Below are positions 11,841 through 36,477 of a stretch of DNA of 64,000 nucleotides, piece by piece. The notes beneath the pieces are model-generated. The model ran no database searches. It had not been told where the DNA came from and worked only from the letters and a program-made list of their open reading frames with translations. The translations under genes were made by a program, and so were the position numbers. The stretch lies in sequence record PV467749.1. One strand, given 5' to 3'. The stretch comes from a phage. Each line of letters opens with the position of its first letter. Positions within the stretch are counted from its first letter, which is position 1.

Positions 11841-12938
11841 TTACTTAAAAGTATTTACAATTTCTAAAACACTTTCAAGATACTTAGCATCAAAAGTTTC
11901 AGTAAATCCTGATGGCAACTCTTCAGTACTTACCACACCACTTTCAATGTATTTCTTTATGAACTTTTCCAACAGTAATGGTTGATTGCCATCTTCAAAG
12001 TAGCGTTCTATAAGTACTTCATGCTCGAACTCAGAATTGCGGCTTTGTTCGTTAACACGGCGTTTCATATCACCAGTGATCCCATATTTGTACACCGTCT
12101 TGTTATTGTTAGTTAGTTTTTGTACATAGAAATATCCAGGTTTTGATGGTTGATATCCATATTCACCACATGATGGACATCCTTTACCAGCCATATGTGC
12201 TTTTGGTTGTTGGGAGAAGACACCATGAGTCGGACATACAATATCAATATAATTCTCGCTTAAAGTATATTCAACCAAGCTATAATCATACTTATGGTTA
12301 TGGATAGGCGACACAAGTTCAATGAAACGTTCAGTGCTTCTTCCACCTTTACCAGAACATGTACCGCAGCCAGTTTTACCCTTCAATAAAGTTTGGGCTG
12401 AAACAGTCCATTCGTGTTTACCGCGTGTGCAATATACGGTAACTTCCGTTTTATTGTTAACATATTTGGTATTTGGAAATTCAAACGCACCACCATAGTT
12501 TTCTTTTACTTTTGCGATGAATGATTCAGTACTGTATGCTTCATTTTTATTACAGACAGGACATCCCCTACCAGAAAGAAATTTGTTTGGTGTAATTTCA
12601 AAGTAATCGTTATGGTCTTCATCAGTGCAAAATAGTGTTACTTTTGTTATAGCGTTAGTGTAATTTAGTTTATCAAATTTGAATTTATCTTTACCAAATT
12701 TAGTTTCTACAGTACTGATGAATGTGTCGTTGTTTGAACGCTGTGACATGTTTGAATAACATGATGCACATGTACATGCAATGTGACGAAGTGCAGACTT
12801 GGTGTTTTCTTTCCCACACTTGTTACATTTTACTGTTGTTTTACTTGCCTTGAATACTAAAGTACTGAAGTCAAATTCTCCATACTTAGCAGTCATTTGG
12901 TTAATAAACTCTTCTTTGTTGATACTTACGTTTGGCAT
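11841..12938 (-). CDS. homing-endonuclease-like protein: repeated Cys/His zinc-ribbon-like modules + C-terminal GIY-YIG-like (T5orf172) domain
   Basis: Four repeats of ...Y.....C..HG.F.Q.P..H..G.GC..C; C-terminal PGYFYV...KYGIT...R; consensus sigma70 promoter upstream. Confidence 0.8.
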   Translation of the reverse strand: MPNVSINKEEFINQMTAKYGEFDFSTLVFKASKTTVKCNKCGKENTKSALRHIACTCASCYSNMSQRSNNDTFISTVETKFGKDKFKFDKLNYTNAITKVTLFCTDEDHNDYFEITPNKFLSGRGCPVCNKNEAYSTESFIAKVKENYGGAFEFPNTKYVNNKTEVTVYCTRGKHEWTVSAQTLLKGKTGCGTCSGKGGRSTERFIELVSPIHNHKYDYSLVEYTLSENYIDIVCPTHGVFSQQPKAHMAGKGCPSCGEYGYQPSKPGYFYVQKLTNNNKTVYKYGITGDMKRRVNEQSRNSEFEHEVLIERYFEDGNQPLLLEKFIKKYIESGVVSTEELPSGFTETFDAKYLESVLEIVNTFK

Positions 12939-12970
12939 ATTTTTGTCTCTTTGATAGCGTGTATGTGCGT

Positions 12971-12999
12971 ATTATACATAACCAAAAACATCATGTCAA
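12971..12999 (-). promoter_or_regulatory. consensus sigma70 promoter TTGACA-N17-TATAAT
   Basis: Minus strand cattGACAtgatgtttttggttatgTATAATacg, just downstream of capsid terminator and upstream of endonuclease gene 11841..12938. Confidence 0.65.
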
Positions 13000-13009
13000 T
13001 GTTTTTAAT

Positions 13010-13034
13010 AAAAAAAGGGACTCCGAAGAGTCCC
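13010..13034 (-). terminator. strong intrinsic terminator downstream of major capsid gene
   Basis: GGGACTC-TTCG-GAGTCCC followed by TTTTTTT on minus strand. Confidence 0.85.
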
Positions 13035-13078
13035 TATTGTTTTTAATTTCTTGATTAAATCTTTTAAATCGATTATAA

Positions 13079-14254
13079 TTACATGAAAGTAACGTTTTTG
13101 ATAGCGATTTTGCTGTAGTAGTCAGCAGCGTTACCTAGTGAACTGGTGCTATCGGTCAACTGTACATAGCCATATCTGGTTAGAAAAGTTGTAACGAGTT
13201 CCCCAGTGTTAGGGTCCATTACAGTACCGGAAGCCATTAGTGGGATGTATGGGCAATAGAACACACCAGCATCAGTTTCAGCGTTACCTTTGTAACCAAT
13301 TAGGATATCTTCAACATCACTTGCATAGGTATCAACGAAGATACGCATGGTGCTGTTTAGAGTACCAACAAATTTAACGTTAGTTGGAGCTTCGAAAGTA
13401 CCTTCAGTAGTACGTGCAAAACTAGAAGTAGTTGCAGACTGTAGAATGGTTAGAGCGGTTGGAGAAACAACAGCCCAGTTCGCAGCACCACGTTTGGTAC
13501 GACGAGCAACTTCGTTCGCTTGACGGTTGATTAGGGTAGCTAGAGCAGCGTGCTCGTCACCAACGAAGGTCGCAACACCAGTAACTTTAGATTGGTCATA
13601 AGTTACAGCAGCAGCACCAGGTAGTGCACGTAGACGGCTTAGTAGCTCTTGGTCGATTTCAACGGTAACTTCTTGAGCGATTGCAGCCATTAGTTCAGCT
13701 TCAACGTCAATACCATGTTGGGATTGTGCATCTTGTGCAGATTCAACAGTCCAACGTGCAGATAGACGACGAGATTTCGCTTCAACAGTTTCACGTAGAA
13801 TACGGATGTTAACGCGACGACCCATAGTACCTTCTAGTTGGCTAGTAGGAGCAGCTTGTGGGTTGCTGTTGTCTGCGTTTAGGTCACCAGTATAAGACTT
13901 AGCGATTTTGTATGGAGAAAGCATTTCTTCACCAGCGATAACACCAGGAGCGTTGTCAGCATATTGAACACGTAGGGTGTGGATCTGACCAACTGGGCCA
14001 GTCATTGGCTGAACACCGATGATTTCGTTAGCGATTACGGTTGGCATAACACGACGCATAATTGGTAGAATCACTTTGTTTAGAGTAGCGATGTTACCAG
14101 CGGTGGTTGCACCAGAAGTAGCAGATTCGTTTAGCATTAGTTTACGATGGTTATCAAGTACGGTTTCCATTACGGACTTACGAGTACCTTGTAGACCTTC
14201 AACTAGTTTCTCTTTAACTGCTACCCATTTGGATTCATTTAGTAGTTGTGACAT
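13079..14254 (-). CDS. major capsid protein (T4 gp23-like)
   Basis: IIGVQPMTGPVGQ vs T4 gp23 ICGVQPMNSPTGQ; VEAKSRRL...SAQDAQSQHGIDVEAEL vs IEAKSRQL...LAQDLRAVHGMDADAEL; IGYKGNAETDAGVFYCPY vs VGYKGPNEMDAGIYYAPY; AAGGAGAT RBS, TATAAATA upstream, strong terminator downstream. Confidence 0.92.
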   Translation of the reverse strand: MSQLLNESKWVAVKEKLVEGLQGTRKSVMETVLDNHRKLMLNESATSGATTAGNIATLNKVILPIMRRVMPTVIANEIIGVQPMTGPVGQIHTLRVQYADNAPGVIAGEEMLSPYKIAKSYTGDLNADNSNPQAAPTSQLEGTMGRRVNIRILRETVEAKSRRLSARWTVESAQDAQSQHGIDVEAELMAAIAQEVTVEIDQELLSRLRALPGAAAVTYDQSKVTGVATFVGDEHAALATLINRQANEVARRTKRGAANWAVVSPTALTILQSATTSSFARTTEGTFEAPTNVKFVGTLNSTMRIFVDTYASDVEDILIGYKGNAETDAGVFYCPYIPLMASGTVMDPNTGELVTTFLTRYGYVQLTDSTSSLGNAADYYSKIAIKNVTFM

Positions 14255-14298
14255 TATTATCTCCTTAAAGATGTTATATTCGTTTTTCAGTATGATAT

Positions 14299-14306
14299 TA
14301 TTTATA
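14299..14306 (-). promoter_or_regulatory. T4-type late promoter TATAAATA for major capsid gene
   Basis: ttcagttcTATAAATAatatcatact about 45 nt upstream of ATG at 14254. Confidence 0.7.
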
Positions 14307-14344
14307 GAACTGAAAAATTTGATTATTAAAATGCTTTAAAATGT

Positions 14345-15460
14345 TTATTTTTTATTGATACCAGAAAGAACATCGAGTTCTTTTAGGAATGCCATATCGT
14401 CAGCGGTCATTTCTTCGCTTTCAACAATAGCCTGACGGTTGCCAGTGATTACTTTACCTTCTGCAAGAGTTCTCTTAGCGGAAGACTGAACTGCTTGACG
14501 AGTGGTAGCAGATTCATTTACTTTAGTACCGTTAAGTACTGACTTATGGTACTTGCTGAAATCGTCTTTAAGCTTTTCTGTAGGAGAAGTAGCTAGAAGG
14601 GATTCCATAATTTGTTTCTGTTGTGTAGTTAGTGGCTTAACTAGTTCAGACATAATCGCATTACGAGCTTGTGAATCTTCCATAATACGTAGTTTGGTTT
14701 TAGCAGCTTTAACTTCACTTACAGTTTCATTTAGTTCTTGTTTAACTTGTGCAATTTCGTCTTCTTTAGACTTAATTGATTCAGTTAGGGAACGTAGTAG
14801 TGAATTCTCATTAAATTGTTTGACATTAAACTCTTGAGCAAACGCTTCAAAGATTTTACGACCAAACATATTTTGTTTTGCTTCAACAAGATCTTCTTTC
14901 AAAGCGTATAGGTTTTTCTGAGTAGTTTCTGCAATATATTTAGCAGCACTTTCAGATGTACGTTTGATGAAGTTGTTACGTGCTTCAGCAATTTGACGGG
15001 AGCCTTCAGCTAGTAGTTTAACGCGAGTTTCAACTAGTTGACGTTTCTCGATGTGGAATTCTTTTAGCTCTTCTGCTAGGATACCGTTAGAGAAATTAAC
15101 GAATTTACCCATGCATTCTTGAAGATGCTTACGTTCTTTACGCATTTGTTTAACTTCTTCAGCCAAAACAGAGTTAGAAAACGCAGAGAAATTACTTAGG
15201 GTTTTACGGAGAGTTACACGATCTTCTACAAGACGTTTTTTCTCTTCATATACTGCACCCATTTCTTCAGCGATAACTTGAGTAACCATAGTATTTAGAC
15301 CTTCGGTTAGCTCAGACAAATCTTGTTTGTAGCGGCCTTTCATTTCTTCACGCATTTCTGCGGCAAGTGTGTTTTTTTCTTCATTCCATGCTTCCTGAAT
15401 TAGCTGTTTTGCCTCATCAGAAAGAGATGATTCTTTTAGAAGCTTTTCTAATTTAGACAT
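14345..15460 (-). CDS. prohead scaffold protein (T4 gp22-like, coiled coil)
   Basis: E/K/Q-rich coiled-coil protein between protease and capsid genes; AAAGGAGAG RBS; TATAAATA upstream. Confidence 0.8.
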   Translation of the reverse strand: MSKLEKLLKESSLSDEAKQLIQEAWNEEKNTLAAEMREEMKGRYKQDLSELTEGLNTMVTQVIAEEMGAVYEEKKRLVEDRVTLRKTLSNFSAFSNSVLAEEVKQMRKERKHLQECMGKFVNFSNGILAEELKEFHIEKRQLVETRVKLLAEGSRQIAEARNNFIKRTSESAAKYIAETTQKNLYALKEDLVEAKQNMFGRKIFEAFAQEFNVKQFNENSLLRSLTESIKSKEDEIAQVKQELNETVSEVKAAKTKLRIMEDSQARNAIMSELVKPLTTQQKQIMESLLATSPTEKLKDDFSKYHKSVLNGTKVNESATTRQAVQSSAKRTLAEGKVITGNRQAIVESEEMTADDMAFLKELDVLSGINKK

Positions 15461-15507
15461 TCGTTCTCTCCTTTAAGTACTGAAATATCTGTACTTCAAC
15501 ATACAAA

Positions 15508-15515
15508 TATTTATA
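15508..15515 (-). promoter_or_regulatory. T4-type late promoter TATAAATA for scaffold gene
   Basis: aaaaaTATAAATAtttg about 48 nt upstream of ATG at 15460. Confidence 0.65.
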
Positions 15516-15526
15516 TTTTTAAAATG

Positions 15527-16147
15527 TTAACCTTTTAATTTCTTGAAAAAATCGTAAATTTCAGAATCTACATTATTTACTGTTTTAGATTCTGTGATTT
15601 TTTTAGGACTATTACAAGGTGATCCGTACTTACTCATCAGAGATTCAAAAACCGCAGTAGGGTATGCCTCTGGAGCACTAGGTTGAGCAACAATATCAAT
15701 TGTGATAATTTCAAAATCAGAAACTATTCCATTGTAATCCACGTTACCGGAACCACGAGAACTTACACCAAGTTTCACACCAGCTTCTAGCATTTTACGA
15801 ATATTAGTACCATGAGCAGTATCAAGTAGTTTGATTTCTGCCATGCCGTTAGCACCTTCCATCCAGACCTTAGTAATCATTGCTGCTACACGGTCAAGGT
15901 TAATTGTTAGTGTTTCAGGGTGGTCACATTCAACTAGAATACTTTCACCTTTAGCCAAACGTTGAGCCATATTATTAACAGCTTTAGTAATTTCGGCTAA
16001 AGGGTAAATTCTCTCATTTAAATTTCTTTGATCGGCTTGAATAGCAATACCACGAAGATAGCAATCACGCCCACCAAGTCCATTATCACGATGTTCCAAA
16101 ACAACTTTAGAATCATTGAATGAAGACCATTCACGAATCATACTCAT
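15527..16147 (-). CDS. prohead core protease (T4 gp21-like)
   Basis: RNLNERIYPLAEITKAV vs T4 gp21 RNKRLYPKRILEKAV; GVSSRGSGNV vs GVSSRGLGSL. Confidence 0.9.
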   Translation of the reverse strand: MSMIREWSSFNDSKVVLEHRDNGLGGRDCYLRGIAIQADQRNLNERIYPLAEITKAVNNMAQRLAKGESILVECDHPETLTINLDRVAAMITKVWMEGANGMAEIKLLDTAHGTNIRKMLEAGVKLGVSSRGSGNVDYNGIVSDFEIITIDIVAQPSAPEAYPTAVFESLMSKYGSPCNSPKKITESKTVNNVDSEIYDFFKKLKG

Positions 16148-16178
16148 AATGATCTCCTTTCCTTTTCTTTATTTAGTG

Positions 16179-16994
16179 TTAGATTTTTGGTTGTGATTTT
16201 GGTAGTGGAGAACGAGATTTAGAAGCGGTATTTTTTGGCTTCGCAACATCTTTCATTTCGCCACGAGCATTTTTACCTAGGTCTTCATCAGTGTGGGACA
16301 TAGCATCTTCGTTTTCAAAATCATAATCTACTTGTTTTTCGGAAGCTTTAGCGAATTTCACTGGAGCAACACCTTGAACTGGAGATTTAGCTTCTGGTGC
16401 AACTGGGGACTTGGTATTAACGCCAGCTTTTTCTTTCTTATCAACCGCAGCAACTTGCTTAAGTTTGAAAGACTCACCAACTTTCTCATCACCGAATTGT
16501 ACATCAGCAAATTCGTCTTCAGATTCTTCACCATCAGCACCAACTTCAACTTCTTCGTCGTCAGAACCTAGGTCAACTTCATCACCACCGATTTCGTCAA
16601 ACATTTGTTGTAGGCCACGGAAAGCATCTTGAATAGATTCCCATTGGTCTTCGGAAGGAACTTCTGCACCAACTTCTGCTTCAGCGTCAACTTCTTCGCC
16701 ATCAGCATCAGCAGAGAATTCAACTTCTTCTTCTGCACTTTCATCTTCTTCACCTAGGGTGTATTCGATTTCAGCATTTAGACCAGCGTCTGGTTGAACA
16801 TCAAAGTCTTCGTCAAGTTTTTCTTCGTCTTTGACTTCAACTTCACATTCTTCTTCGTCCATGCTTTCTTCTAGTTCTTTATTGATTTCTTGAGCTTGCT
16901 CAACAAAGTACTTACGCATTTTTTTATCAGCAACATCTTGTTCGCCGTTTGCAAACGCTTCAATTGCTTCTTGTAGTAGTTTTAAATTCGCCAT
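16179..16994 (-). CDS. highly acidic prohead core protein (gp68-position)
   Basis: D/E-rich low-complexity protein between portal and protease; start chosen at ATG (MANLKLL) with GGAGGA RBS; internal ORFs on other frames are shadows. Confidence 0.65.
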   Translation of the reverse strand: MANLKLLQEAIEAFANGEQDVADKKMRKYFVEQAQEINKELEESMDEEECEVEVKDEEKLDEDFDVQPDAGLNAEIEYTLGEEDESAEEEVEFSADADGEEVDAEAEVGAEVPSEDQWESIQDAFRGLQQMFDEIGGDEVDLGSDDEEVEVGADGEESEDEFADVQFGDEKVGESFKLKQVAAVDKKEKAGVNTKSPVAPEAKSPVQGVAPVKFAKASEKQVDYDFENEDAMSHTDEDLGKNARGEMKDVAKPKNTASKSRSPLPKSQPKI

Positions 16995-17036
16995 TATATC
17001 CTCCATAGATATATTACATTCATATAAAGTATGATA

Positions 17037-17044
17037 TTATTTAG
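17037..17044 (-). promoter_or_regulatory. late-promoter-like box CTAAATAA within conserved 30-nt element
   Basis: aaatttttcagtacTAAATAATATCATACT nearly identical to capsid promoter region; about 45 nt upstream of acidic core protein ATG. Confidence 0.45.
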
Positions 17045-17094
17045 TACTGAAAAATTTCGCCATTTTTAAAAGCTTTAAAAAGTGCGATTTTTGT

Positions 17095-17322
17095 TTACAT
17101 TAATCCTGAACCATCACCGGATGGTGCTGCTGCATAAACAACAGCGACAACATTTTTGCGTCGTTGTTCTTCATTAGCTTTAAATTCACGGTACTTTCTT
17201 AAATTATTAAGTACTTGTAATGTTAGTTTTGGTTTTCTGGAATCAGTAATTTTATATACGTTCTGATCATCTTCAGGGTCGTATAAAGAATCACTGCTAG
17301 ATTCAAAGATGTCCTTTAACAT
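17095..17322 (-). CDS. small head-module protein (gp67-position), hypothetical
   Basis: 75 aa, AAAGGAGAT RBS, located between portal and acidic core protein genes. Confidence 0.6.
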   Translation of the reverse strand: MLKDIFESSSDSLYDPEDDQNVYKITDSRKPKLTLQVLNNLRKYREFKANEEQRRKNVVAVVYAAAPSGDGSGLM

Positions 17323-17346
17323 TTCATCTCCTTTGAATATGCATTA

Positions 17347-17374
17347 TAATGAGGGCAACTAATGTACCCTCATT
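17347..17374 (-). other. hairpin between portal stop and next gene, downstream of CATAAATA late-like box
   Basis: AATGAGGG-11 nt loop-CCCTCATT; no T-run. Confidence 0.35.
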
Positions 17375-17395
17375 CTTATACATTGTTATTTATGA

Positions 17396-19132
17396 TTAAA
17401 AAGAATCGCCTAAATTATTCGGGTTAAAACCTGCACTTCCTTGTTGTTCTTGGTATTCAGCATCGGCACTTTCTAAGTTACCGTCATCATCAATACCCAA
17501 ATCCATACCAGGATCGTTAGGAGCATCTATACCAACAGATTGCAACCCAGCAGCATCTTCTTCACCACTTGACGGAGCGGAACCATCTTGTGGATTTTCT
17601 TGGAGCCACATTTGCTCATTCTTAACAATATCAGCTTTAGAGAAGCCCATTTTTTCAAGAATAGTTTGTTTTGCCATATATGGCAGATCGTTAAGTGGGA
17701 GATAGGTGTTAATTAGTTTAGCATCTAGTTCCGCTTTACGATAAGAAGCCAAGTTAATAGGTGGATTCATAATTACTTCAAAAGATGAAGTACTAATGTT
17801 ATATCCATTTTTAACCATAAAACGTTTAAATTCTGCATCAAATAGTTTTGCAACTAAACGTTGATAACGCATACATTGGTTATTAAAACGTAATTCACTT
17901 GCCATTGCTTGTGTTGCACCATCACCAAATAGTGATACACCACCATCATCTGGACCTTGCGGTAGATATGAAGCTGGGATTTGCAAACCACGAATCAATT
18001 TATTGTTGAAGTAACGCAAGTCATCAATCTGACCTAAGTTATCACCACCAGGAAGTGTTTGTACATCTGAACCACGACCTTCAGAAGTTTGTGGGAAGAA
18101 GTAATCTTCTAGAATACTTAATGGATTATATGCTGCATCCATTAGTGAAGTACTGCCACCTTTATTTGAAGGAATACGTCTTTGGTGAATTTCATTTTTG
18201 AATCGTTCTACGTATGCCATTGCTTGGTGAGTTTGCATATCACCAACGTCGATTTTAAATACACGACGCTCTGGAGCACGTTGAACACGATAGATAATAA
18301 TACTATCTTCAAGTAATTCTTTTTGTTTATAGACTTTGAAAACATCTTCAAGTATACTAGTACCAAAAGGCCAAACTCCATCTTGTCCTGTATTTAGGGT
18401 TAGATGAATTACATGTTCTGCACCAACTGGAATAACATCAAGACGACCGTTAGTACTGAATGGGTCAGCAGAGTTTCCTTGGTTAGTAAAGCCAGATGCA
18501 CCACCTGCTGCTACTGAACCACCGCCACCTAATGTGGTAGGGATTGCACCAGGATATGCAGTTTTGTCAAAACCAACTTGCAAGTTACTAAACACTTTAT
18601 CTTTAAGATTCAAAGATACGTCACGGATATAATAAATTACAGGGGTTTTTCCGGTTGCTTCGTTAACGAATACTTGTTCAACGTTTTTTGGGCTTACCCA
18701 GTACCAGTCAAATGTTTCTGGGTCACGAATGAAGAATTGGTCACCGTATTTTAATAGGCCACGTACAATTTCATACATTCTGGTTTTAAAATCATTTTGT
18801 TCTGTCCATGCATCCAAACGGTCTTCAATAGTAGTTACTTCTGTATCACCAATATCATCTTTATATTTGATTTTATATGGAAGACCAAAATCTTCAGTAC
18901 TTTGTGTACAGAAGTCAGCAATGATATTAAGTGCTGTTCTAATTTCAGGATCTTGGTCCATCTGTTCATACTGACTATAACGTTCAGTACGGTTAGCTAA
19001 ACCATTGTATACTACTGGAAGATAGGAAGCGAAATTGGTTTTCGTTCCTGTTGATTTGTTGCTATTACTGGACTGATTAGGGACGACCGATAACTTCGAT
19101 CTCCCCATTGTCATATGTCGTTTCCAACTCAT
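17396..19132 (-). CDS. portal protein (T4 gp20-like)
   Basis: [21 protein letters not shown] vs T4 gp20 [39 protein letters not shown] vs DTLPGADNTGNMEDIRWF. Confidence 0.92.
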   Translation of the reverse strand: [578 protein letters not shown]

Positions 19133-19144
19133 TATTGTTCGTCC

Positions 19145-23372: not shown

Positions 23373-23858
23373 ATGAAGAAAAGATTAAAAGATAGTAAAG
23401 AAGCTGCAAACTATCGAAATGAATTACTAAAGAAGCAAAAAGGAATTGATCCTATAATTAAGGAACCAATAACTAAGCCAGTACTTGATCACTATCACTT
23501 CGAGAATCAACATTGTCGCGGAGTACTCCAGAATGAGATAAACGCCTTTGAGGGTAAGGTTTCCAACGCATGGAACCGATATGGAAAGCATTTAACTGAT
23601 ATGCCATTACATGAAGTACTAAGAAACCTTGCAGATTATCTTGAAAAGAACAATAATATCCCACTGGAAGAACAGGTGATTCATCACACGGCACTAACTG
23701 TGGATGTAAACAAGTTTAAAAGGCTCCCTGCAACGCGTCAGAACGAGATATTGGGGTTATGCGGTATAGAGCCATTACCTAATACAAAAGAACGCTCAAA
23801 GAGAGCTAGAGAGCTTATTAAGAAAGGAATTCTCAATATAAATGAATACAAAAAATGA
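23373..23858 (+). CDS. Endonuclease VII-family protein (T4 gp49-like resolvase)
   Basis: LDHYHFENQHCRGVLQNEINAFEG aligns with T4 endo VII LDHDHELNGPKAGKVRGLLCNLCNAAEG; HEVLRNLADYLEK vs YLEWLENLLTYL; zinc-ligand cysteines apparently absent. Confidence 0.7.
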   Translation: MKKRLKDSKEAANYRNELLKKQKGIDPIIKEPITKPVLDHYHFENQHCRGVLQNEINAFEGKVSNAWNRYGKHLTDMPLHEVLRNLADYLEKNNNIPLEEQVIHHTALTVDVNKFKRLPATRQNEILGLCGIEPLPNTKERSKRARELIKKGILNINEYKK

Positions 23859-24546
23859 TATTTTTATAGATAAAGCAAATATAAAACATAACAACAAATA
23901 TGAATATACATTAGTTGAGTATGTAAATAATTACACTAAAGTTAAAATTATATGTAAGAAACATGGTATGTTTTCACAAACTCCAAATCACCATTTAAAA
24001 GGAAGTGGATGTAATGAATGTTACTTAGAAAGCAAGCACGATACTAAAGATGACTTCATAAAAAAATCCATGAAAGTTCATGGTGAATTATATGATTACT
24101 CAAATGTGATATATAAATCTTCAAAGAAAAAAGTTGAAATTATATGCAATAAACATGGTTCTTTTTATCAGAGGCCACATGAACATATATCAGGTAAAGG
24201 TTGTTCAGAATGTGGAGTTGGTGGTTACAAGAGAAGTAAACCAGGTCGTTTATATGTATATGAAGTTTTACAAGACGACAAAACTATAGCATACAAATAC
24301 GGAATAACTAATGGTACTATTAATAATAGAAAATATTACCATGAGTATCACTCTAACTTAAAATTTAATTGTGTTTATGAACTATATGATGAAGATGGTA
24401 ATGTTCCATATAATATAGAAAAAGCAATAAAAGCTGGCATGAAAAGTGTTTTTTTATCAAAAACTATTTTAGAAGTTGGGTATACCGAAACGATAGAACC
24501 GTCTTTATATGAAGATTTGATTAATATAATAAAAAAAGGGAGCTAA
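23842..24546 (+). CDS. homing-endonuclease-like protein: two zinc-ribbon-like modules + GIY-YIG-like (T5orf172) domain
   Basis: Repeats YEYTLVEYVNNYTKVKIICKKHGMFSQTPNHHLKGSGCNEC and YDYSNVIYKSSKKKVEIICNKHGSFYQRPHEHISGKGCSEC; C-terminal PGRLYVYEV...KYGIT. Confidence 0.8.
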   Translation: MNTKNDIFIDKANIKHNNKYEYTLVEYVNNYTKVKIICKKHGMFSQTPNHHLKGSGCNECYLESKHDTKDDFIKKSMKVHGELYDYSNVIYKSSKKKVEIICNKHGSFYQRPHEHISGKGCSECGVGGYKRSKPGRLYVYEVLQDDKTIAYKYGITNGTINNRKYYHEYHSNLKFNCVYELYDEDGNVPYNIEKAIKAGMKSVFLSKTILEVGYTETIEPSLYEDLINIIKKGS

Positions 24547-24562
24547 GGCTCCCTTTCCTTTT
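24531..24562. terminator. bidirectional terminator between convergent endonuclease and gp46-like genes
   Basis: A7-GGGAGC-TAAG-GCTCCC-TTTCCTTTT; stop codon of plus gene lies in the loop. Confidence 0.75.
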
Positions 24563-29445: not shown

Positions 29446-29759
29446 TGTCCAATTATAGTCAATACTCTCCTTATGCAAAGGTTAAACAAACGTGGTATCT
29501 TGGTTACAATTTACCACGTGATATGGTTCCTGCTGATACTGACGACTTCTATGTAATTCCATTGAAGTATGAGCATCAACCTTGGCGTTTAGCATACGAA
29601 ATGTATGGTAATGAACGTCTGTATTATGTATTTGCCCTATTGAATCCTGATATATTAGGAGAAGACCCAATATACAATTTTAATAGTGGTATCACAATTC
29701 GTGTTCCCTCAAATCAACGAGTGCAAAACTATTTGAACGGTACTCGTAACATAGGTTAA
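29445..29759 (+). CDS. hypothetical small baseplate-operon protein
   Basis: ATG overlapping upstream stop; 104 aa. Confidence 0.55.
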   Translation: MSNYSQYSPYAKVKQTWYLGYNLPRDMVPADTDDFYVIPLKYEHQPWRLAYEMYGNERLYYVFALLNPDILGEDPIYNFNSGITIRVPSNQRVQNYLNGTRNIG

Positions 29760-29770
29760 TGGAGTAAAGT

Positions 29771-32026
29771 ATGGCAGATTTACAAAGTTCTGTTGATAAT
29801 TTTAAAAATGATATTTCAAACATCACAAGTTCTGCAAAGGCAGCAAAAGAAACTGCAACAAGTACTATTGAAAGCTTAAAAGCCACTGCTAATACTTTGC
29901 AAAATGATCTTGAAAAAGTAAAAAACAATTTTAAAGCTAAGGTTAGTAACGTACAGTCTTTACCAAAGCAAAGTGCAAGCGTTGACCAAGTGTATGAAGA
30001 CTTGGATCTAAGTGAGTTTGTTATTCCTTATGACAATAAATTGTTAAAGTATGACAATCCAACTTGGCACTTTTCCCTTTTCGCATTAGACAAGGATGAT
30101 TTCAAAAACTTCTGGCTTTACCCAGATGCTGAAGTTCAACGTCATGTCATCTCTGAAAGTGGTGTAACTGGAAAGTATAATATCACAAGTGTTCAGATGA
30201 CACAAGCTGGTCCTTCAACTCCAGGGATGACAACCAACTATTGCTTCAACACAGCAGTACTGAACCTTTCAGAAAACAATAGTATGAGTTTATATGATGA
30301 ACTAATTTCTTTAAGTAATAAACTAAGGTATCATAAGTTCATGGACTTACCTTTGATATTAGAATTGAAATTTATTGGATTCAATACTAATGGTGTACCT
30401 GAAACTATACCAGAAACAACTCGTAGATGGTCCGTGAAGATTAACAGTGTTACCGCTAGTGCATCACAAAGTGGTAGTACTATGCTGTATTCTATGAGTC
30501 TTGTTCATAACCGTGCGGCTCTAGTGGATAATGTGGAATGGACTCTTAAAGAACCATTTACCTGCACAGCAGAAAACTTTGGTGATTTTTGTTTTGATTT
30601 GGAAGATAAATTGAATCAAATGGCAGACCAGCAATATGGTTATTTGCGTTATAAATTTGGTGAGTTAGCAGAAGGGAAGTTCTTTGAATTCAAAGTTGCA
30701 CCAGATTTACAGGATTTGTTTATAAACTATGATTCTAAACAGATGGCAGAAGCTGGAGCTACAAAAAGTGGTGCACAGGGTTCTAAAAACTTTTCATGGA
30801 ATCCAAGTACTCCAATTTCTCGAATTATCGATGACGTAATAGATACCTGTACTGTACAGGCTGATGATAGTACTAGTGTTCGTCAATTTGTTAATATAAT
30901 CCCACTTAAACAGTATGTTGGATTTGATAATTACCGAAACACGTCAGTTTATAAAGTTGTTTTCTATATAGTTCGTTTTAAAATTGGTGATATTGTTCAT
31001 GAATCCGATTTACAGCCAGAAAACTTTACATTTGAGTATTTCTTTGAAAATGCCGAGAAATATGTAGACCCAAATGACCAAAAACCAAAGATTAACATGA
31101 AAACTTACAATTATCAGTTTAGTGGACTCAATAGTGAGATTCTAGACCTTGATTTGAAGTTTGATCAGCAATTCTTTGTAGCTACAACTCGTAACCCTGG
31201 TCCAATACAGGACGTTGCGAACCATGCTGGTACACACACATCACAAGAATTGAATATCCAAGGTGTTCAGTACAACAGTATACCAGATGCGTGGGCAAAA
31301 ACAAGTGATTTACGCGTCACACGTGATCTTGGTGGTATATTAACACAGGCACAAGAGCAACTTTTAAATCGAGTAGAAACTTTAGCAAGAGAACAAATGC
31401 AGGTTGGTAATGCTGAAGAACAGGATCGTTATAATAACTATCAAGTAAACGTTCTACCACAGTATATTGAAGATTATGTAACCACATATGAAGAAAATGA
31501 CGGTGGAACCGATGGAATTGGTCATCGATATGGTGAAGTATTCACAATGCCAACTGAAGCAACCAATAATGAAACAACATTATCTGCATCATTGAACGAT
31601 AACAGTAGTACATATGAAATGGACCGCCGTAAAATTCGTGACAACTATTACAATCGTCCATTCTTGTGTAAATTGGATATGCGTGTAGTTGGTGACCCAT
31701 ATTGGTTAGGTTGGAGTGATTATTCATATATCCAATATCTTGAACAGGTAATTAATGGAGAAGATATGGAAATTAATCCAGAAGATTACCATGTAGCAAA
31801 CTACATTACATCTGAAGCATATCTTTTATTGAAATTACAACCTGTAGTTTCTATAAATGATAACACTGGTGTTCTTGATATTAATACCCCAACTACATTT
31901 AACCAAACTGTTTATCGTGTAAACAAAATTGTTCATGATTTTGGTGCAGGTGGTTCATTTACACAACAAATTCAGGCTGCAATTGTAATTCGTGCACTCA
32001 AACGTCACGATAGTATAATTGAATAA
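29771..32026 (+). CDS. large structural protein with N-terminal coiled coil (baseplate hub region)
   Basis: GGAG RBS; 751 aa; lies directly upstream of gp5-like gene; no motif-level assignment. Confidence 0.7.
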   Translation: MADLQSSVDNFKNDISNITSSAKAAKETATSTIESLKATANTLQNDLEKVKNNFKAKVSNVQSLPKQSASVDQVYEDLDLSEFVIPYDNKLLKYDNPTWHFSLFALDKDDFKNFWLYPDAEVQRHVISESGVTGKYNITSVQMTQAGPSTPGMTTNYCFNTAVLNLSENNSMSLYDELISLSNKLRYHKFMDLPLILELKFIGFNTNGVPETIPETTRRWSVKINSVTASASQSGSTMLYSMSLVHNRAALVDNVEWTLKEPFTCTAENFGDFCFDLEDKLNQMADQQYGYLRYKFGELAEGKFFEFKVAPDLQDLFINYDSKQMAEAGATKSGAQGSKNFSWNPSTPISRIIDDVIDTCTVQADDSTSVRQFVNIIPLKQYVGFDNYRNTSVYKVVFYIVRFKIGDIVHESDLQPENFTFEYFFENAEKYVDPNDQKPKINMKTYNYQFSGLNSEILDLDLKFDQQFFVATTRNPGPIQDVANHAGTHTSQELNIQGVQYNSIPDAWAKTSDLRVTRDLGGILTQAQEQLLNRVETLAREQMQVGNAEEQDRYNNYQVNVLPQYIEDYVTTYEENDGGTDGIGHRYGEVFTMPTEATNNETTLSASLNDNSSTYEMDRRKIRDNYYNRPFLCKLDMRVVGDPYWLGWSDYSYIQYLEQVINGEDMEINPEDYHVANYITSEAYLLLKLQPVVSINDNTGVLDINTPTTFNQTVYRVNKIVHDFGAGGSFTQQIQAAIVIRALKRHDSIIE

Positions 32027-32039
32027 GGAATAATTTAAG

Positions 32040-34703
32040 ATGGCAGATACAAGTAAGAAATATGCCCAACAACAGTTGGGTCGTTTTGACCCTTCGTATC
32101 CACAACTAGCAACCGTGATGGATAACCGTGACCCAACTAAATCCGGTAAGCTAAAAGTGTGGATTCAAGGTTCACAAAGTGATAAAAATTCAAAAGAGTC
32201 ATGGATTGAAGCATCATACATGTCTCCATTCGCTGGTAAAACTCCAGGGATACCAAGTGCTGATGCTTATGGTCAATATCCAAAGGGATATGGTTTTTGG
32301 GCGGTTCCACCTGATGTCGGATGTACTGTTGTTGTTATATTTGCACAAGCAAGAACATTCCAAGCGTATTGGATTGGTTGTGTTTATGACCAACGTATGA
32401 ATACGATGGTTCCTGGGATGGCTACTGAAATAAGCAATTATGCAGGTACTGATATGCCATTACCCGTAACTGATTATGACCGTAATACAATTTCTACCAG
32501 TACTCAAGACAAATATGCAAACGTTCCAATTATTGCAGGTCTGAAAAAACAAAACTTACTTTATGATGAGGAAGCGGGTGTTGCTAACCGTAGTAGTACT
32601 CGCCAGACCACCAGTACTGTTTATGGTCTTTCCTCACCTCGTGGTAACAGTTTTATTATTGATGATGGTTACACAGAAGAAGAATTAACAGCACCTACAT
32701 GGGATCAAGATCCAGATGGTTATCAGGATACCCAATTCAATAACCCAGTGAACGATACTCGTGTTGGTTCTCGTAAAAATGAAGGCGTTGTAATTAAAAC
32801 ACGTAGTGGTGCACAGTTGTTGTTATCTGAAGCCTCTGGTGATGTTCTTTTAATTAACCGTGATGGTACTGCACGTATTAAATTCACTGGTGAAGGTGAT
32901 ATTGAAATGCACTGTGATAAGAATATTAACATTCGTGCAGGTCAAGATATTAACATGGTTGCTGGACGCTCATATAATATTGAAAGTGGAGCAGACTTCA
33001 ATGCTCGTGTTGGTGCAAACACTAAACTAGATTTGGTTGGTGCATTGGATGCTAAAGTTGGTGGTCAGGTTGTTATTAACGCTGGAGCAGATTTACGTTT
33101 AGTAACAGCAGCTTCATTACGTATGCAAAGTGGTAGCAGTACTGATATAACTGCTGGTTCTAATGCGTCAATCTCTGCTGCTACCAGTGCTAATCTTATT
33201 GGTTCTTCATCAGCTATTATTAGTGGTGGTGGTCAAACCCTTACTGTTAACAGTGGTGGTAATAGTGGTACTGCTGAATTTAATGCACCAAACTTCCGCA
33301 CCCCATCTGCTGGCTTGAATGATCATATACATGATATATCGGCTTGGGTTGATGCAGAGAATCACGGCAGTACTGTTGAACCTCCACGTCAAGGTGGTGG
33401 TAGTGGGAATAGTGAATCCCCAGTTCAACCTGAACCTGCTAATGATGTAGCTCCAACTTTAGCTCCAGTACAGGACACTGAAGCAATTCAATATGTAAAT
33501 TATACAACAGAAACAGAACAAGTTCAAACACAAGATTTAATGACTTCTGATCCTAGTATGACTGGTTATAGCATTACTTATGAAGGTCTTCATATGTTCA
33601 TGCCGTGTAGTGGAACCATTCGCCAATACGGTTATTGGGGGAAAGGTGTCCCGACTAGTGGTGGTGGTAAAGCTGATAGAAGTGGCTGGGAAATACAGTG
33701 CAAGGGTGATGTTGTAGCTCCAGATGGCGGTGTAGTTGTTATCACTAATGGTGCTTTATTGGTTCAACATAAGTCTGGATATAAATCTGTATTTTATAAT
33801 ATTCAATCAGATTTGCTCAATAAAGACGTTGTTCAAAAAGGTCAAGTTATCGGTAAAGCTAATGGTGTTATTCAATTTGAAATAAGAGTCACCTCTGCCA
33901 ACGTACTAGGATTTAGTGGTTCTGTTGACCCTGGATTATTCTATGCATCCCAGACTGGTACAGGTTCTGAAGCGGGAAATAAAACATTAATTGCAGGACA
34001 AGCAACGAACCAAGCAGCACCGAAAGCTGTTGTTCAACCTTCTGTTGATAGTGATGAATTAGTTGTAACAACTAAAATTAAAACTATCGGTACTGGGTAT
34101 TCTCAACGTGGTTCTCGTCATGTCCCTCGTCGTAGAAGAACACAACGTTCAGGTGGTACTCCAGCACCTACTGCACAAGAATCATACAATGTGGGTAATG
34201 TTGATAAGACTGCAATTGATTGGAAAGTTGTTCCGGGTGATTCACAATTTATTTCTGAATTGAAAGAATATGAAGGAACAATGGCGTATCAACAAGCTAA
34301 AGGATATTACCGCAATGGTAAATTTTGGAGATATTTGGATAGTCGTGGATTCCCAACTATTGGTTACGGTCACTTGATTGTTGGTGGTGAAAACTTCTCT
34401 GGTGGGATTACCGAACAGGAAGCCAATGATATGTTGGTGCGTGATAGTAGTAAGGCTATATATGACGCAAAATCCATTTACGCTTCTTATAAGATGAAAA
34501 CACCTTACATGGCACAACAAGTTCTATGTCAAATGGTATTCCAGATGGGTAAAGGTGGTGTAATGAAATTTAAGTCAATGCTATCTGAAATGGCTAAAGG
34601 TAACTACAAGCAAGCTGCTGCTCAAATTCGAAATTCAGCTTGGTATCGTCAAACTACACGCCGTGCTGAATTAATGGCACGTAGATTAGAGGCATGTCAA
34701 TAA
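32040..34703 (+). CDS. baseplate hub/puncturing protein (T4 gp5-like) with C-terminal GH24 lysozyme domain
   Basis: N-terminal OB-like region (KLKVWIQG...GCTVVVIFA) resembles gp5 N-domain; beta-helix-like Ser/Gly/Ala repeats; C-terminal CQMVFQMGKGGVMKF...SAWYRQTTRRAELM matches T4 lysozyme INMVFQMGETGVAGF...SRWYNQTPNRAKRV. Confidence 0.9.
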   Translation: MADTSKKYAQQQLGRFDPSYPQLATVMDNRDPTKSGKLKVWIQGSQSDKNSKESWIEASYMSPFAGKTPGIPSADAYGQYPKGYGFWAVPPDVGCTVVVIFAQARTFQAYWIGCVYDQRMNTMVPGMATEISNYAGTDMPLPVTDYDRNTISTSTQDKYANVPIIAGLKKQNLLYDEEAGVANRSSTRQTTSTVYGLSSPRGNSFIIDDGYTEEELTAPTWDQDPDGYQDTQFNNPVNDTRVGSRKNEGVVIKTRSGAQLLLSEASGDVLLINRDGTARIKFTGEGDIEMHCDKNINIRAGQDINMVAGRSYNIESGADFNARVGANTKLDLVGALDAKVGGQVVINAGADLRLVTAASLRMQSGSSTDITAGSNASISAATSANLIGSSSAIISGGGQTLTVNSGGNSGTAEFNAPNFRTPSAGLNDHIHDISAWVDAENHGSTVEPPRQGGGSGNSESPVQPEPANDVAPTLAPVQDTEAIQYVNYTTETEQVQTQDLMTSDPSMTGYSITYEGLHMFMPCSGTIRQYGYWGKGVPTSGGGKADRSGWEIQCKGDVVAPDGGVVVITNGALLVQHKSGYKSVFYNIQSDLLNKDVVQKGQVIGKANGVIQFEIRVTSANVLGFSGSVDPGLFYASQTGTGSEAGNKTLIAGQATNQAAPKAVVQPSVDSDELVVTTKIKTIGTGYSQRGSRHVPRRRRTQRSGGTPAPTAQESYNVGNVDKTAIDWKVVPGDSQFISELKEYEGTMAYQQAKGYYRNGKFWRYLDSRGFPTIGYGHLIVGGENFSGGITEQEANDMLVRDSSKAIYDAKSIYASYKMKTPYMAQQVLCQMVFQMGKGGVMKFKSMLSEMAKGNYKQAAAQIRNSAWYRQTTRRAELMARRLEACQ

Positions 34704-34716
34704 ATATTTCAGTACT

Positions 34717-34724
34717 ATAAATAA
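34717..34724 (+). promoter_or_regulatory. T4-type late promoter TATAAATA for endolysin
   Basis: atttcagtacTATAAATAataatgagg about 17 nt upstream of ATG 34741. Confidence 0.7.
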
Positions 34725-34740
34725 TAATGAGGAAATCTTT

Positions 34741-35229
34741 ATGAGTAAATGGGAAATCAAAAATACCGACGAACAATTTTTTAAAGAAATTAAAGAATTT
34801 GAAGGTACTATTGCGTATCAGAAAAAACTTGGTTATTTTAAAAATGATAAGTTTTGGGTATATAAAGACAGTCTAGGTCTTGATACCATTGGTTACGGTC
34901 ACCTTGTACTTAAGGGTGAAAGTTTCAAAAATGGACTCACTGAAGCAGAAGCTGATGCTCTCCTTATAAAAGATGCTCAGACCGCTTACAATGACGCAAA
35001 ATCAATCTATGATCAATTTGGAATGACTGCTCCAGTACAGGTTCAGCGTGTATTGTGGTTTATGGTGTTCCAAATGGGTAAATCAAAAGTTTTAAATTTC
35101 AAAAAAGCGATGGCTGCTCTCGGTCGTGGTGATTATAAAACTGCTGGTAAAGAAATGCGTGATAGTTCGTGGTACAAACAAACCACATCCAGAGCGGAGA
35201 AGATGGCTCGCATCGTCGAATCCGTATAA
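34741..35229 (+). CDS. endolysin, T4-lysozyme-like (GH24)
   Basis: EFEG...DTIGYGH...WFMVFQMGKSKVLNF...SSWYKQTTSRAEKM; RBS GAGGA; TATAAATA about 17 nt upstream of ATG. Confidence 0.9.
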   Translation: MSKWEIKNTDEQFFKEIKEFEGTIAYQKKLGYFKNDKFWVYKDSLGLDTIGYGHLVLKGESFKNGLTEAEADALLIKDAQTAYNDAKSIYDQFGMTAPVQVQRVLWFMVFQMGKSKVLNFKKAMAALGRGDYKTAGKEMRDSSWYKQTTSRAEKMARIVESV

Positions 35230-35244
35230 TAAAGGAAACACATA

Positions 35245-35640
35245 ATGGCAATTGTTTTTAAAGGTTTTTCAACTCCAGTAGTTGGAAGAACTGAAACATT
35301 GTATGACAGTGAATTGGTTCGTCAGGATTTAATGAATCATTTCAATACAAAAAAAGGTGAACGTGCATTTGATGCTGATTATGGGTTCATTGCGTGGGAT
35401 TTGCTATTTGAATTGGATGGTTATAATACAATCAACCTTTTGGAAGCAGATGCCCGTAGAATTATTAGCTTGGACCCACGTTTAAGCTTAAAGAAACTTC
35501 AAATATCAAGAATTGAGTACGGTTATCAGATGGATATAGTACTTGAATATGTTGTTCTCAATACTCTTGAAGAATTAACTATAGTTTTTGATGCAAGAAG
35601 TAACAACAGAATGGCTACCTATTCTGTATCATCTTTGTAA
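35245..35640 (+). CDS. baseplate wedge protein (T4 gp25-like)
   Basis: GERAFDADYGFIAWDLLFE vs T4 gp25 GSRPFDPEFGCDLSDQLFE; 131 aa; terminator downstream. Confidence 0.85.
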   Translation: MAIVFKGFSTPVVGRTETLYDSELVRQDLMNHFNTKKGERAFDADYGFIAWDLLFELDGYNTINLLEADARRIISLDPRLSLKKLQISRIEYGYQMDIVLEYVVLNTLEELTIVFDARSNNRMATYSVSSL

Positions 35641-35645
35641 ATTAT

Positions 35646-35675
35646 AAAAGCACTCTTCGGGGTGCTTTTCTTTTT
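35646..35675 (+). terminator. intrinsic terminator after gp25-like gene
   Basis: AAAAGCACTC-TTCG-GGGTGCTTTT with UUCG-type tetraloop, then T-run. Confidence 0.8.
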
Positions 35676-35712
35676 GGATAAATATTTCTATATATAATTT
35701 ATAGGATGATGT

Positions 35713-36477
35713 ATGAAATATGCAACAACCAGATCAACAAAATACAAATTTGTAACCAACGCCATTAGAGTGCATGGTATGCGTTATGATTATAGTATGG
35801 TTAAATATCATAATGCTAAAACAAAGGTGTGGATCGGATGTGAGAAGCATGGGTTTTTCCTACAAACACCAAATGACCATACATGTGGCAAAGGATGCAT
35901 GGAATGCTCGGTTGAGTATAATGCGAATCGTCAGAAAAGTCCACAGAACTTTATAAATTTTCTTAATAAGGCTAATTTAAAGTTTAGAAATAAATTTGAT
36001 TATAGCACAGTAGAATATGTTAATAATAAAACTCACATATCCATAATATGCCCAACACATGGGTCTTTTTTACAAAGACCTGATAATCATTTGTCAAGTA
36101 AGTATGGTTGTGAGAAATGTATGATTGAATCAACGCAATCAAAAGCAGTAACTGATATTGAAAAAATGATATCTTTCACTAATTATGTTAAAGAAAAGCG
36201 TTTTGATGATTGTAGAAACATATTAACTTTGCCATTTGATTTTTATATTGAAGATTTAAACTTGTGTATTGAATATGATGGTGAACAACACTTTCGATGT
36301 TCTGAACATTGGGGTGGTGACAAATCGCTAAAACAAACTCAACACAATGATAAAATTAAAAACACGTACTGTGCTGACCATGATATTAACTTACTTCGTA
36401 TCAAATACGATGAAGATCATATCATCGTACTAAAAAAGTACTTTTATGATAATTTTAACATAATATTAAAGGATTAA
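35713..36477 (+). CDS. homing-endonuclease-like protein: two zinc-ribbon-like modules + C-terminal PD-(D/E)xK (DUF559/Vsr-like) nuclease domain
   Basis: Repeats YDYSMVKYHNAKTKVWIGCEKHGFFLQTPNDHTCGKGCMEC and FDYSTVEYVNNKTHISIICPTHGSFLQRPDNHLSSKYGCEKC; C-terminal LCIEYDGEQHF...LLRIKYDE. Confidence 0.8.
   Translation: MKYATTRSTKYKFVTNAIRVHGMRYDYSMVKYHNAKTKVWIGCEKHGFFLQTPNDHTCGKGCMECSVEYNANRQKSPQNFINFLNKANLKFRNKFDYSTVEYVNNKTHISIICPTHGSFLQRPDNHLSSKYGCEKCMIESTQSKAVTDIEKMISFTNYVKEKRFDDCRNILTLPFDFYIEDLNLCIEYDGEQHFRCSEHWGGDKSLKQTQHNDKIKNTYCADHDINLLRIKYDEDHIIVLKKYFYDNFNIILKD

Follow-up and report, generated by a model that had tools for sequence, protein, structure and literature searches.

The 64,000-nucleotide stretch of DNA studied here (sequence record PV467749.1, hereafter the window) comes from a member of the genus Asteriusvirus, a Rak2/121Q-like jumbo coliphage, and it carries three genes, which we call A, B and C, whose products join an N-terminal array of repeated modules to C-terminal domains of two different kinds (Table 1). 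An earlier reading of the letters alone, the original prediction, had presented three such open reading frames (ORFs) as a paralogous family of selfish endonucleases with swapped nuclease domains; all three exist at the coordinates it gave, and the motifs it quoted, PGYFYV…KYGIT and LCIEYDGEQHF…LLRIKYDE, are found in their tails. The closest deposited genome is that of Escherichia phage vB_Ec-M-J, which is ~99% identical over the aligned parts, with a background mismatch rate between the two of 0.9%, and against it the 64-kb window shows only three discontinuities: a tail-fibre segment, gene B and gene C. The genes flanking A, B and C are intact and separate, so that none of the three is carried in an intron or intein, and in a search for introns no Rfam family rose above threshold anywhere in the window. 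These two observations rule out that the genes are intron-borne, an idea suggested by the annotation 'protein associated with group I intron' in phage 121Q.

Table 1. Features discussed in the text. Positions are those of the window unless a relative is named; module and tail boundaries within the proteins are in amino acids (aa), and "B/C-derived" marks E values from a hidden Markov model (HMM) built from the modules of B and C.
Feature	Position	Strand	Description
Gene A	11841..12938	-	365 aa; four zinc-finger modules and a predicted C-terminal T5orf172-type GIY-YIG nuclease; phrog_681 'endonuclease' 1e-76
Module A1	12747..12914	-	aa 9-64; degenerate, CxxC…CxxC
Module A2	12543..12728	-	aa 71-132; B/C-derived HMM E 1.6e-7
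Module A3	12348..12527	-	aa 138-197; B/C-derived HMM E 1.5e-6
Module A4	12159..12332	-	aa 203-260; canonical CxxH…CxxC; B/C-derived HMM E 1.2e-19
Tail of A	11844..12155	-	aa 262-365; predicted T5orf172/GIY-YIG domain (GYFYV…YKYGIT…RR…E…GFTETF)
Gene B	23842..24546	+	234 aa; two zinc-finger modules and a predicted T5orf172-type GIY-YIG nuclease; phrog_681 3.7e-50
Module B1	23857..24030	+	aa 6-63
Module B2	24049..24222	+	aa 70-127; DUF4379 match
Tail of B	24226..24543	+	aa 129-234; predicted GIY-YIG fold, β-β-α-β-α-α
Gene C	35713..36477	+	254 aa; two zinc-finger modules and a probable Vsr-like PD-(D/E)xK nuclease
Module C1	35746..35916	+	aa 12-68
Module C2	35956..36129	+	aa 82-139; DUF723 1.2e-7
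Tail of C	36133..36474	+	aa 141-254; probable PD-(D/E)xK / Vsr-like nuclease
Putative co-conversion (divergence) tract at B	23493..23858	+	3' two-thirds of the endonuclease VII gene, adjoining B
Putative co-conversion tract at C	36466..36700	+	5' end of the gp6-like baseplate gene, adjoining C
Allele-specific divergence patch at A	13137..13237	-	3' end of the major capsid gene, upstream of A
Terminator-like hairpin downstream of the capsid gene	13017..13034	-	conserved boundary of every A-site allele; six-genome alignment
Solo T5orf172 gene S	11119..11442	-	107 aa, no DNA-binding domain; Pfam T5orf172 3e-13
TH47 genes at the three sites	L006 1312..2019; L002 1365..2387; L010 1142..2140		one endonuclease gene per site
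EC22.5-2 three-finger Vsr-type gene	L003 875..1846		

The repeated unit of all three genes is a module of ~58 aa, a CxxH…CxxC treble-clef zinc finger of the Pfam DUF723/DUF4379/CapR type, laid out as a helix (FIxKAxxxHG), the segment xYDYSxVxY, a β-hairpin with C-x2-H and a terminal G-C-x2-C. Alignment of the eight modules bears out the copy numbers first proposed, four in A and two each in B and C. The proposed repeat length of about 45 aa has to be corrected, since the period is really 62-70 aa and 45 aa is no more than the length of the conserved core, YDYS to CxxC; likewise the proposed repeat pattern holds for A4, B1, B2, C1 and C2, which are 36-51% identical in pairs, but not for the divergent A1-A3 (20-36%). 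A1 has CxxC in place of CxxH, and four potential zinc ligands are retained in 8/8 modules. As a non-circular test of the repeat, an HMM built from the B and C modules was run on A and one built from the A modules was run on B and C. The first detected A4, A2 and A3, with A1 marginal (E 0.05), and the second matched all four modules of B and C (1e-13 to 4e-19); moreover, independent Pfam models match the modules (DUF4379, described as 'probable treble clef zinc finger', on B at 1.2e-6, DUF723 on C at 1.2e-7, and CapR too), so that the repeat is not an artefact of our own alignment. Alignment, Pfam and the cross-HMM test thus agree on a shared array in A, B and C, with repeated N-terminal modules of the CapR/DUF723/DUF4379 type in both A and B, and a six-frame scan of the window found the module in no ORF besides these three. 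At the nucleotide level the modules of A, B and C are only 40-61% identical, which marks the genes as old paralogues and not recent copies, and which rules out recent exchange of modules among them. Previous work on CapR showed that its sequence-specific DNA binding needs its four Cys (PMC8096241), and by analogy the finger arrays of A, B and C would be expected to bind DNA.

The tails of A and B, 38% identical to each other, had been predicted to be T5orf172-type GIY-YIG domains, and profile, transitive and fold evidence all support this. Their alignment has as invariant positions Y13, K27, G29, R38, E68 and G88-x-T90-E91, that is, the Tyr of GIY, the YIG-equivalent KxG, the Arg, the Glu and a GxTE motif, and the same catalytic columns are invariant over 121 tail sequences. 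Comparison by hhalign of the tail profile with the solo T5orf172 protein S, encoded near A, gave 84.5% probability (E 7e-6), and the genes that occupy the same sites in the related phage TH47, whose products are 40-48% identical to the A and B tails, score above the Pfam cut-offs for T5orf172/MUG113. An exhaustive search with the tail profile retrieved 6,503 cluster representatives in which the domain is nearly always C-terminal, and among 121 sampled proteins Pfam models were matched for T5orf172 in 54, MUG113 in 50, DUF4379 in 60, DUF723 in 49 and CapR in 15. A word-indexed homologue search with the B tail alone returned no candidates. The A/B-type tail has the three-stranded sheet and flanking helices of the GIY-YIG (URI) fold. 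Taken together, these data support the view that A and B carry a nuclease domain of the T5orf172 branch of GIY-YIG with its catalytic residues intact, and they would be expected to cleave DNA. Such an activity is on record for the T5orf172 protein Odn, which cuts double-stranded DNA in vitro and loses cutting when the conserved Glu is mutated (PMC8263062).

The tail of C is of a different kind. Over 62 family members D176, E187, G190, H193, D213 and K216 are invariant and D189 and Q192 nearly so, within a family motif of the form …PFDFY…IEYDGxQH…D..IK…; the tail thus has an acidic/His/Lys catalytic constellation, which does not imply a one-to-one match to the E-D-x-H-D residues of I-Bth0305I. 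A confident structure model of the tail (predicted local distance difference test score, pLDDT, 92.6) gave weak Foldseek matches, none at E <= 0.001, among which were E. coli Vsr (1vsr, E 0.056, prob 0.93) and the PD-(D/E)xK proteins TnsA, Cas4, RecE, AbaSI, PvuRts1I and R2 endonuclease. The top ranks are held by mitoribosomal proteins, which we take to contain RAP-like (restriction-endonuclease-like) domains, and the remainder are consistently PD-(D/E)xK nucleases. In addition, the D…ExD…H core of the C family lines up with the Vsr-like domain of AbaSI in a profile search (E 0.075), and Pfam models of the PDDEXK clan match members of the 62-sequence family at E <= 0.01 (DUF5889 in 23, DUF2726 in 16, PvuRts1I_N in 3 and DUF559 in 2). 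Searched against all PDB sequences at E <= 10, the profile found only AbaSI and one unrelated transfer protein; single-sequence searches of the PDB with B and C found no match, and NCBIfam yielded nothing useful. Of the double label given to this tail at the outset, Vsr-like and DUF559, the invariant residues, Foldseek, the AbaSI alignment and the clan hits lend moderate support to the first, and the second falls away for C, which has no hit to DUF559 (PF04480) at E <= 1. On this sequence and model evidence we regard the C tail, with moderate confidence, as a Vsr-like PD-(D/E)xK nuclease domain. In PHROGs, C matches phrog_559 at 2e-55 (named 'HNH endonuclease'), phrog_9084 ('homing endonuclease') at 2e-22 and phrog_7140 ('intron encoded nuclease'); an HNH identity, which is also the RefSeq name of the 121Q homologue, is not supported, as neither an HNH motif nor a Pfam HNH hit was seen in C.

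These intact motifs bear on a reading in which A, B and C descend from homing endonucleases but act as DNA-binding regulators, with tails that are inactive or serve in binding only and with a polymorphism that is no more than turnover of accessory genes. CapR does show that this type of module can serve as a transcriptional repressor (PMC8096241), and A, B and C adjoin late structural and recombination genes (capsid, endonuclease VII and baseplate). CapR, however, lacks a nuclease domain, whereas A, B and C retain intact catalytic residues that do not vary within their families (Y, KxG, R and E in the one tail type; D, E, H, D and K in the other), and turnover does not predict the donor-like synonymous tracts in neighbouring essential genes that are described below. 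We therefore consider the regulator reading very unlikely.

Gene C provides the clearest picture of an insertion. It lies between the gp25-like and gp6-like baseplate genes, where the window has 766 bp (35700..36465) against 28 bp in vB_Ec-M-J, with flanks that are 99.9% and 97.5% identical; the gene is present at this site in 4/35 related records (two 121Q records, JP4 and JNE01) and missing from the ten closest. On the left flank there are 0/200 mismatches to the closest relative, and the right flank diverges over ~200-300 nt, with 24/200 mismatches against the 0.9% background. Over its first 100 nt, gp6 agrees at 96% with the gene of 121Q, which carries C, and at 86% with that of the C-less vB_Ec-M-J; beyond 300 nt the gene is 100% identical to vB_Ec-M-J and 85-90% to 121Q, and all changes within the tract are synonymous save one. 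A tract that follows a phage with C, and departs from a backbone that is nearly identical everywhere else, is what homing with co-conversion leaves behind, and by this comparison the gp6 tract is a co-conversion tract, C having apparently come with ~100 nt of donor gp6. At the junction (36463..36485) the final codons of C (ATA TTA AAG GAT TAA), homologous to intergenic sequence of C-less genomes, double as the Shine-Dalgarno sequence of the gp6-like gene, whose ATG is at 36482, and this retention of the ribosome-binding site within C preserves gp6 expression. C also lies downstream of a hairpin and a TATA-rich, late-promoter-like stretch (~35650..35699) that directly precedes gp6 in C-less genomes.

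Gene B has inserted inside the 3' end of the endonuclease VII gene, with whose end its start overlaps; the window has 796 bp (23733..24528) here against 114 bp in vB_Ec-M-J. B was found at this site in 0/62 related GenBank phage records and in 21 metagenomic or assembly contigs, at the same site every time. Beside it the tract has 57/200 mismatches to the closest relative against the 0.9% background, and the endonuclease VII gene (23373..23858) is a three-part mosaic, in which nt 1-120 are identical in the window, vB_Ec-M-J and TH47, nt 120-300 are 97-100% identical to TH47, which also has a B-type gene at this site, and 63-78% to the B-less vB_Ec-M-J, and the last ~130 nt are unique to the window. 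The last 18 nt of B (…KKGS-stop) and the bidirectional hairpin that follows (24529..24555) are the original end of endonuclease VII in B-less genomes, and the C-terminal 42 aa of the endonuclease VII of the window differ from those of relatives. That the original end now forms the 3' end of B indicates that B inserted within the coding sequence and gave the host gene a substitute C-terminus.

Other endonuclease genes use the same positions. The gene of TH47 at the B site, of the T5orf172 type and without DUF723-type fingers, joins a B-like tail (48% identity) to an N-terminal region of unrelated sequence, and immediately upstream of endonuclease VII, in reverse orientation, EC22.5-2 has a three-module C-type (Vsr-type) gene; at the exact C site TH47 has a classical Seg/I-TevI-like GIY-YIG gene instead. 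These alternative occupants make the B and C sites hotspots for different endonuclease genes. Comparison with relatives turned up sites without B, without C and without A, and B and C combine nuclease-type tails with a sporadic distribution, in keeping with the proposal that they are selfish. The sharp one-sided tracts at B and C, combined with their clean junctions, support reading both genes, at the level of sequence, as insertion polymorphisms with co-conversion.

The same evidence speaks against a role of A, B and C as host-takeover or repair nucleases, active in Vsr-like mismatch repair or in degradation of host DNA, in which the repeats would be a common zinc-ribbon scaffold and no mobility would be involved. 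Some sources do name homologues 'very-short-patch-repair endonuclease', but these names are automatic annotations; moreover the closest relatives lack B and C altogether and, being deposited phage isolates, are presumably viable, and arrays of many fingers speak for long specific targets and against general repair or degradation. As the co-conversion tracts also count against it, we find this explanation scarcely credible.

How the arrays and the nucleases came together can be followed among homologues. Those of B and C fall into hundreds of 90%-identity clusters with 2-5 modules, mostly 4, so that C with its 2 modules stands at the short end of the range, and their tails form at least three classes, ~189 of the C type (IExDGxQH), ~17 true Vsr-like (GDxWHG…WExD) and ~11 T5orf172-like, counts that come from protein sets obtained with different queries and are not unbiased frequencies. 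The third nuclease class on the same finger array is represented, for example, by the metagenomic proteins P0045, P0038, P0088, P0031 and P0044, which closely resemble true Vsr (…YEFxGDxWHGNP…WESDW). By tblastn the B-like family is found at 2,653 places in 948 phage records, including 'tcgB putative homing endonuclease' of phage ICP1 and 'Hef-like' genes. The array of B is 43% identical to that of C, and over ~120 aa it is 50-60% identical to arrays with exclusively C-type tails, T5orf172-tailed arrays being more distant. Because the B array sits near C-type arrays while a B-like tail is joined to another N-terminus in TH47, the histories of array and nuclease are discordant in both directions. 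This grouping, together with the mosaic alleles at the A site described next, supports the swapping of nuclease domains that had been proposed, and the position of the B array supports a chimeric origin of B, from a Vsr-lineage array and a T5orf172 nuclease, as judged from the protein alignments. The further proposal that shuffling is active stands for alleles at a single site, between which exchange has been recent, but not for A, B and C among themselves.

The A site lies between the terminator hairpin of the capsid gene and an ORF of 119 aa (orf119), and it is empty in fEgEco12, which has 41 bp where the window has 1,192 bp. Besides the empty state there are at least four alleles, A itself being present in vB_Ec-M-J and others. 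In WPEC5 and related phages the allele encodes 305 aa and its DNA matches A only from inside module 3 on, with the breakpoint inside A3 near 12404; in EC.P1 it encodes 300 aa and is A-like only from inside module 4 on, with the breakpoint inside A4 near 12279. Both keep the 3' end of A, at ~94% DNA identity over the shared segment (the WPEC5 tail is 88% identical in protein), and have other fingers. The TH47 allele is fully divergent, with 332 aa and a T5orf172 domain and without DUF723-type modules. In other genomes, among them those of distant Klebsiella and Salmonella jumbo phages, the alternative fingers are confined to this locus. That they were copied from a paralogue elsewhere in the genome is ruled out, as they are found in one place per genome and at the orthologous locus only. 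Upstream of A, the capsid patch of the window is 99% identical to that of vB_Ec-M-J, which has the A allele, and 75-86% identical to those of phages with an empty site or another allele, rising to 100% further in; as evidence of co-conversion it is weaker for A than the gp6 and endonuclease VII tracts are for C and B. By these comparisons gene A is polymorphic and mosaic but looks long-resident.

Between gene A and the tail-fibre gene lies the solo GIY-YIG gene S, which the original prediction had noticed and which is real: relatives annotate it at 11119..11427 as predicted, and the longest ORF runs to 11442. S is 100% conserved in TH47, 92% in PBECO4, 77% in Klebsiella phage fENko-Kae01 and 66% in Serratia phage BF, and is thus a conserved core gene of Rak2-like jumbo phages; its presence in all relatives examined rules out that it is part of the mobile set, and its product could be a nuclease that has been domesticated, or a partner protein. 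More distant relatives of S are found in T5-like phages, beside tRNA genes. The 119-aa ORF between S and A (11467..11826, minus strand) matches nothing in Pfam and is shared by all relatives examined.

The state of the A site and of S leads to a reading in which A, B and C, too, are domesticated nucleases that have ceased to be purely selfish and are kept for the benefit of the phage, either to exclude related phages (marker exclusion) or to destroy satellites and parasites as Odn of ICP1 does, so that the diversity of arrays tracks competitors. The A site is filled in most relatives, including distant Klebsiella and Salmonella jumbo phages, with several divergent arrays on a conserved nuclease end, S is a core gene, and Odn sets a precedent for a T5orf172 nuclease re-targeted through a domain swap (PMC8263062). 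No satellite-like or foreign target was identified here, however, and the scattered occurrence of B and C, their exact placement between or within conserved genes and the co-conversion tracts beside them fit homing better than a beneficial function that has become fixed. Exclusion and homing are also not mutually exclusive, so that this reading overlaps with the one we prefer; as an explanation in its own right we judge it decidedly unlikely.

In our view A, B and C are, with high probability, free-standing homing endonuclease genes that share a finger array and carry two unrelated nuclease types. Free-standing phage endonucleases of the T4 Seg/Mob paradigm spread by cutting the endonuclease-less allele in mixed infections, followed by recombinational repair, and a similar course can be proposed here. 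Each finger would read a short stretch of DNA and the whole array a long asymmetric target; on co-infection with a relative that lacks the gene, the enzyme would cut the DNA of that relative in or near the adjacent conserved gene, namely in the 3' end of endonuclease VII for B, in the 5' end of gp6 (its first ~100-300 nt) for C, and probably in the 3' end of the capsid gene for A. Recombinational repair from the carrier genome would then copy the gene and a short flank into the cut genome, and the copied flank, with its mostly synonymous changes, would protect the carrier from its own enzyme. New enzymes may arise when recombination swaps arrays, single fingers or nuclease domains. The one-sidedness of the tracts leads us to predict recognition and cleavage sites in the 3' end of endonuclease VII, in early gp6 and possibly in the 3' end of the capsid gene.

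Several observations weigh against the homing endonuclease reading. The A tail matches Pfam T5orf172 (PF10544) at E 0.0044 with 17.9 bits, where the cut-off is 20, and over only the first 45 of 101 profile positions, and the B tail has no direct Pfam match to T5orf172 or MUG113. By sequence, neither I-Bth0305I nor any other PDB homing endonuclease is within reach of the C-family profile. The divergence tracts might be ordinary mosaic recombination that ends at B and C by chance, and gene A, at a site occupied so widely, resembles a long-term resident more than a recent invader. Finally, binding, cleavage and homing by A, B and C, including the positions of their targets, are read from sequence and from analogy with characterized relatives.

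For A and B the closest known systems are those of Vibrio phage ICP1. Barth, Dunham and Seed described in 2023 T5orf172 homing endonucleases with repeated CapR/DUF723/DUF4379 zinc-finger domains, encoded beside or within essential genes and showing inter-repeat recombination and swaps of binding and nuclease domains (PMC10448857). A and B are like ICP1 gp165, gp174 and others (PMC10448857; Netter et al. 2021, PMC8096241) in architecture, in genomic habit and in the signs of recombination among repeats and among genes, and ICP1 tcgB is itself a tblastn match of B. The two systems differ in the host phage, here an Escherichia jumbo phage of the genus Asteriusvirus, and in the modules, which here are CxxH…CxxC, of DUF723/DUF4379 flavour, against the CxxC…CxC of CapR; the array of B, unlike the ICP1 T5orf172 set, is nearest to arrays on another nuclease superfamily, and PMC10448857 mentions neither Vsr nor EDxHD. 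Odn (ICP1 Gp88) is likewise a chimeric T5orf172 nuclease re-targeted by a swap of its DNA-binding domain, but it uses a RepA_N domain and targets a satellite origin (PMC8263062), and no such borrowed domain or foreign target was seen here.

For gene C the founding example is I-Bth0305I, the first EDxHD homing endonuclease, which has a Vsr-like catalytic domain. C would have in common with it a Vsr-like PD-(D/E)xK catalytic domain for phage homing; the N-terminal DNA-binding regions differ, and the C-family profile gives no sequence match. A study from 2025 ('Presence of group II introns in phage genomes', Nucleic Acids Research; PMC12350094) described endonucleases with 3-5 CapR/DUF4379/DUF723-like domains of ~60 aa followed by an EDxHD/Vsr-like nuclease of ~100 aa, encoded in phage group II and group I introns, and termed them a large unrecognised outgroup with thousands of UniProt hits (PMC12350094). 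With its probable Vsr-like tail C shares this architecture, but it is free-standing and intergenic with no Rfam intron, has 2 modules in place of 3-5, and has a mobility documented here by an empty site and a co-conversion tract.

More generally, DNA-binding modules common to several nuclease families are reportedly the substance of the NUMOD concept of Sitbon and Pietrokovski, from 2003. Similar to I-TevI, the T4 Seg proteins and NUMOD-bearing enzymes, A, B and C combine a modular nuclease with binding modules, are free-standing between conserved genes, show signs of intronless homing with co-conversion of flanks, and use a module type common to unrelated folds. However, A, B and C have their nuclease at the C-terminus, where I-TevI and the Seg proteins have it at the N-terminus, the modules that would bind DNA are treble-clef fingers in tandem in place of a zinc finger, helix and helix-turn-helix, and the GIY-YIG domain is of the T5orf172 branch, the classical Seg-like gene being the one at the C site of TH47. 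The T5orf172 architecture with its shuffling (2021-2023) and the Vsr-like architecture (2025) are thus already known, and the present genes form no new category. What is new is the presence of both nuclease types on one type of array within 25 kb of a jumbo coliphage, the description of junctions and co-conversion tracts at the level of base pairs, the allele series at the A site and, as far as its sequence can tell, the chimeric gene B, absent from deposited phage isolates.

Elsewhere in the window, the tail-fibre gene (9368..11077, minus strand) has its discontinuity at 9346..9791, at the C-terminal end, with 446 bp here versus 882 bp in the closest relative, which is probably the swap of a host-range cassette. 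A patch rich in single-nucleotide polymorphisms (SNPs) at 31001..32000, with ~4.4% mismatches against the 0.9% background, occupies the 3' portion of a gene for a virion structural protein (the EcMJ_322 homologue) with no insertion nearby, and there are smaller SNP patches at 7501..8000, 13001..13500 and 54501..55000.

At present we can only conjecture, and hold it doubtful, that the A site is no transient site of homing but a long-lived multi-allelic 'incompatibility' locus, whose T5orf172 end is re-armed with new fingers by recombination within the array and whose alleles are each tied to a resistant variant of the capsid 3' end, and that B, a Vsr-type array grafted onto the T5orf172 nuclease resident at the endonuclease VII site, results from the same process crossing superfamilies. 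If this were true, co-infecting relatives would cut each other's capsid region, and the A locus would help to set recombination boundaries and lineages in jumbo phages. Independently of this conjecture, A, B and C offer a compact natural case of the building and rebuilding of homing endonucleases, in which one array is combined with two, and in metagenomes at least three, unrelated cutting domains, and in which sequenced relatives display the empty sites, the alternative occupants and the donor-like tracts alike. The genes yield testable predictions of target regions and catalytic residues. Moreover, the finger arrays are potentially programmable DNA-recognition modules, and the allele series at the A site could help to decode the correspondence between finger and base.

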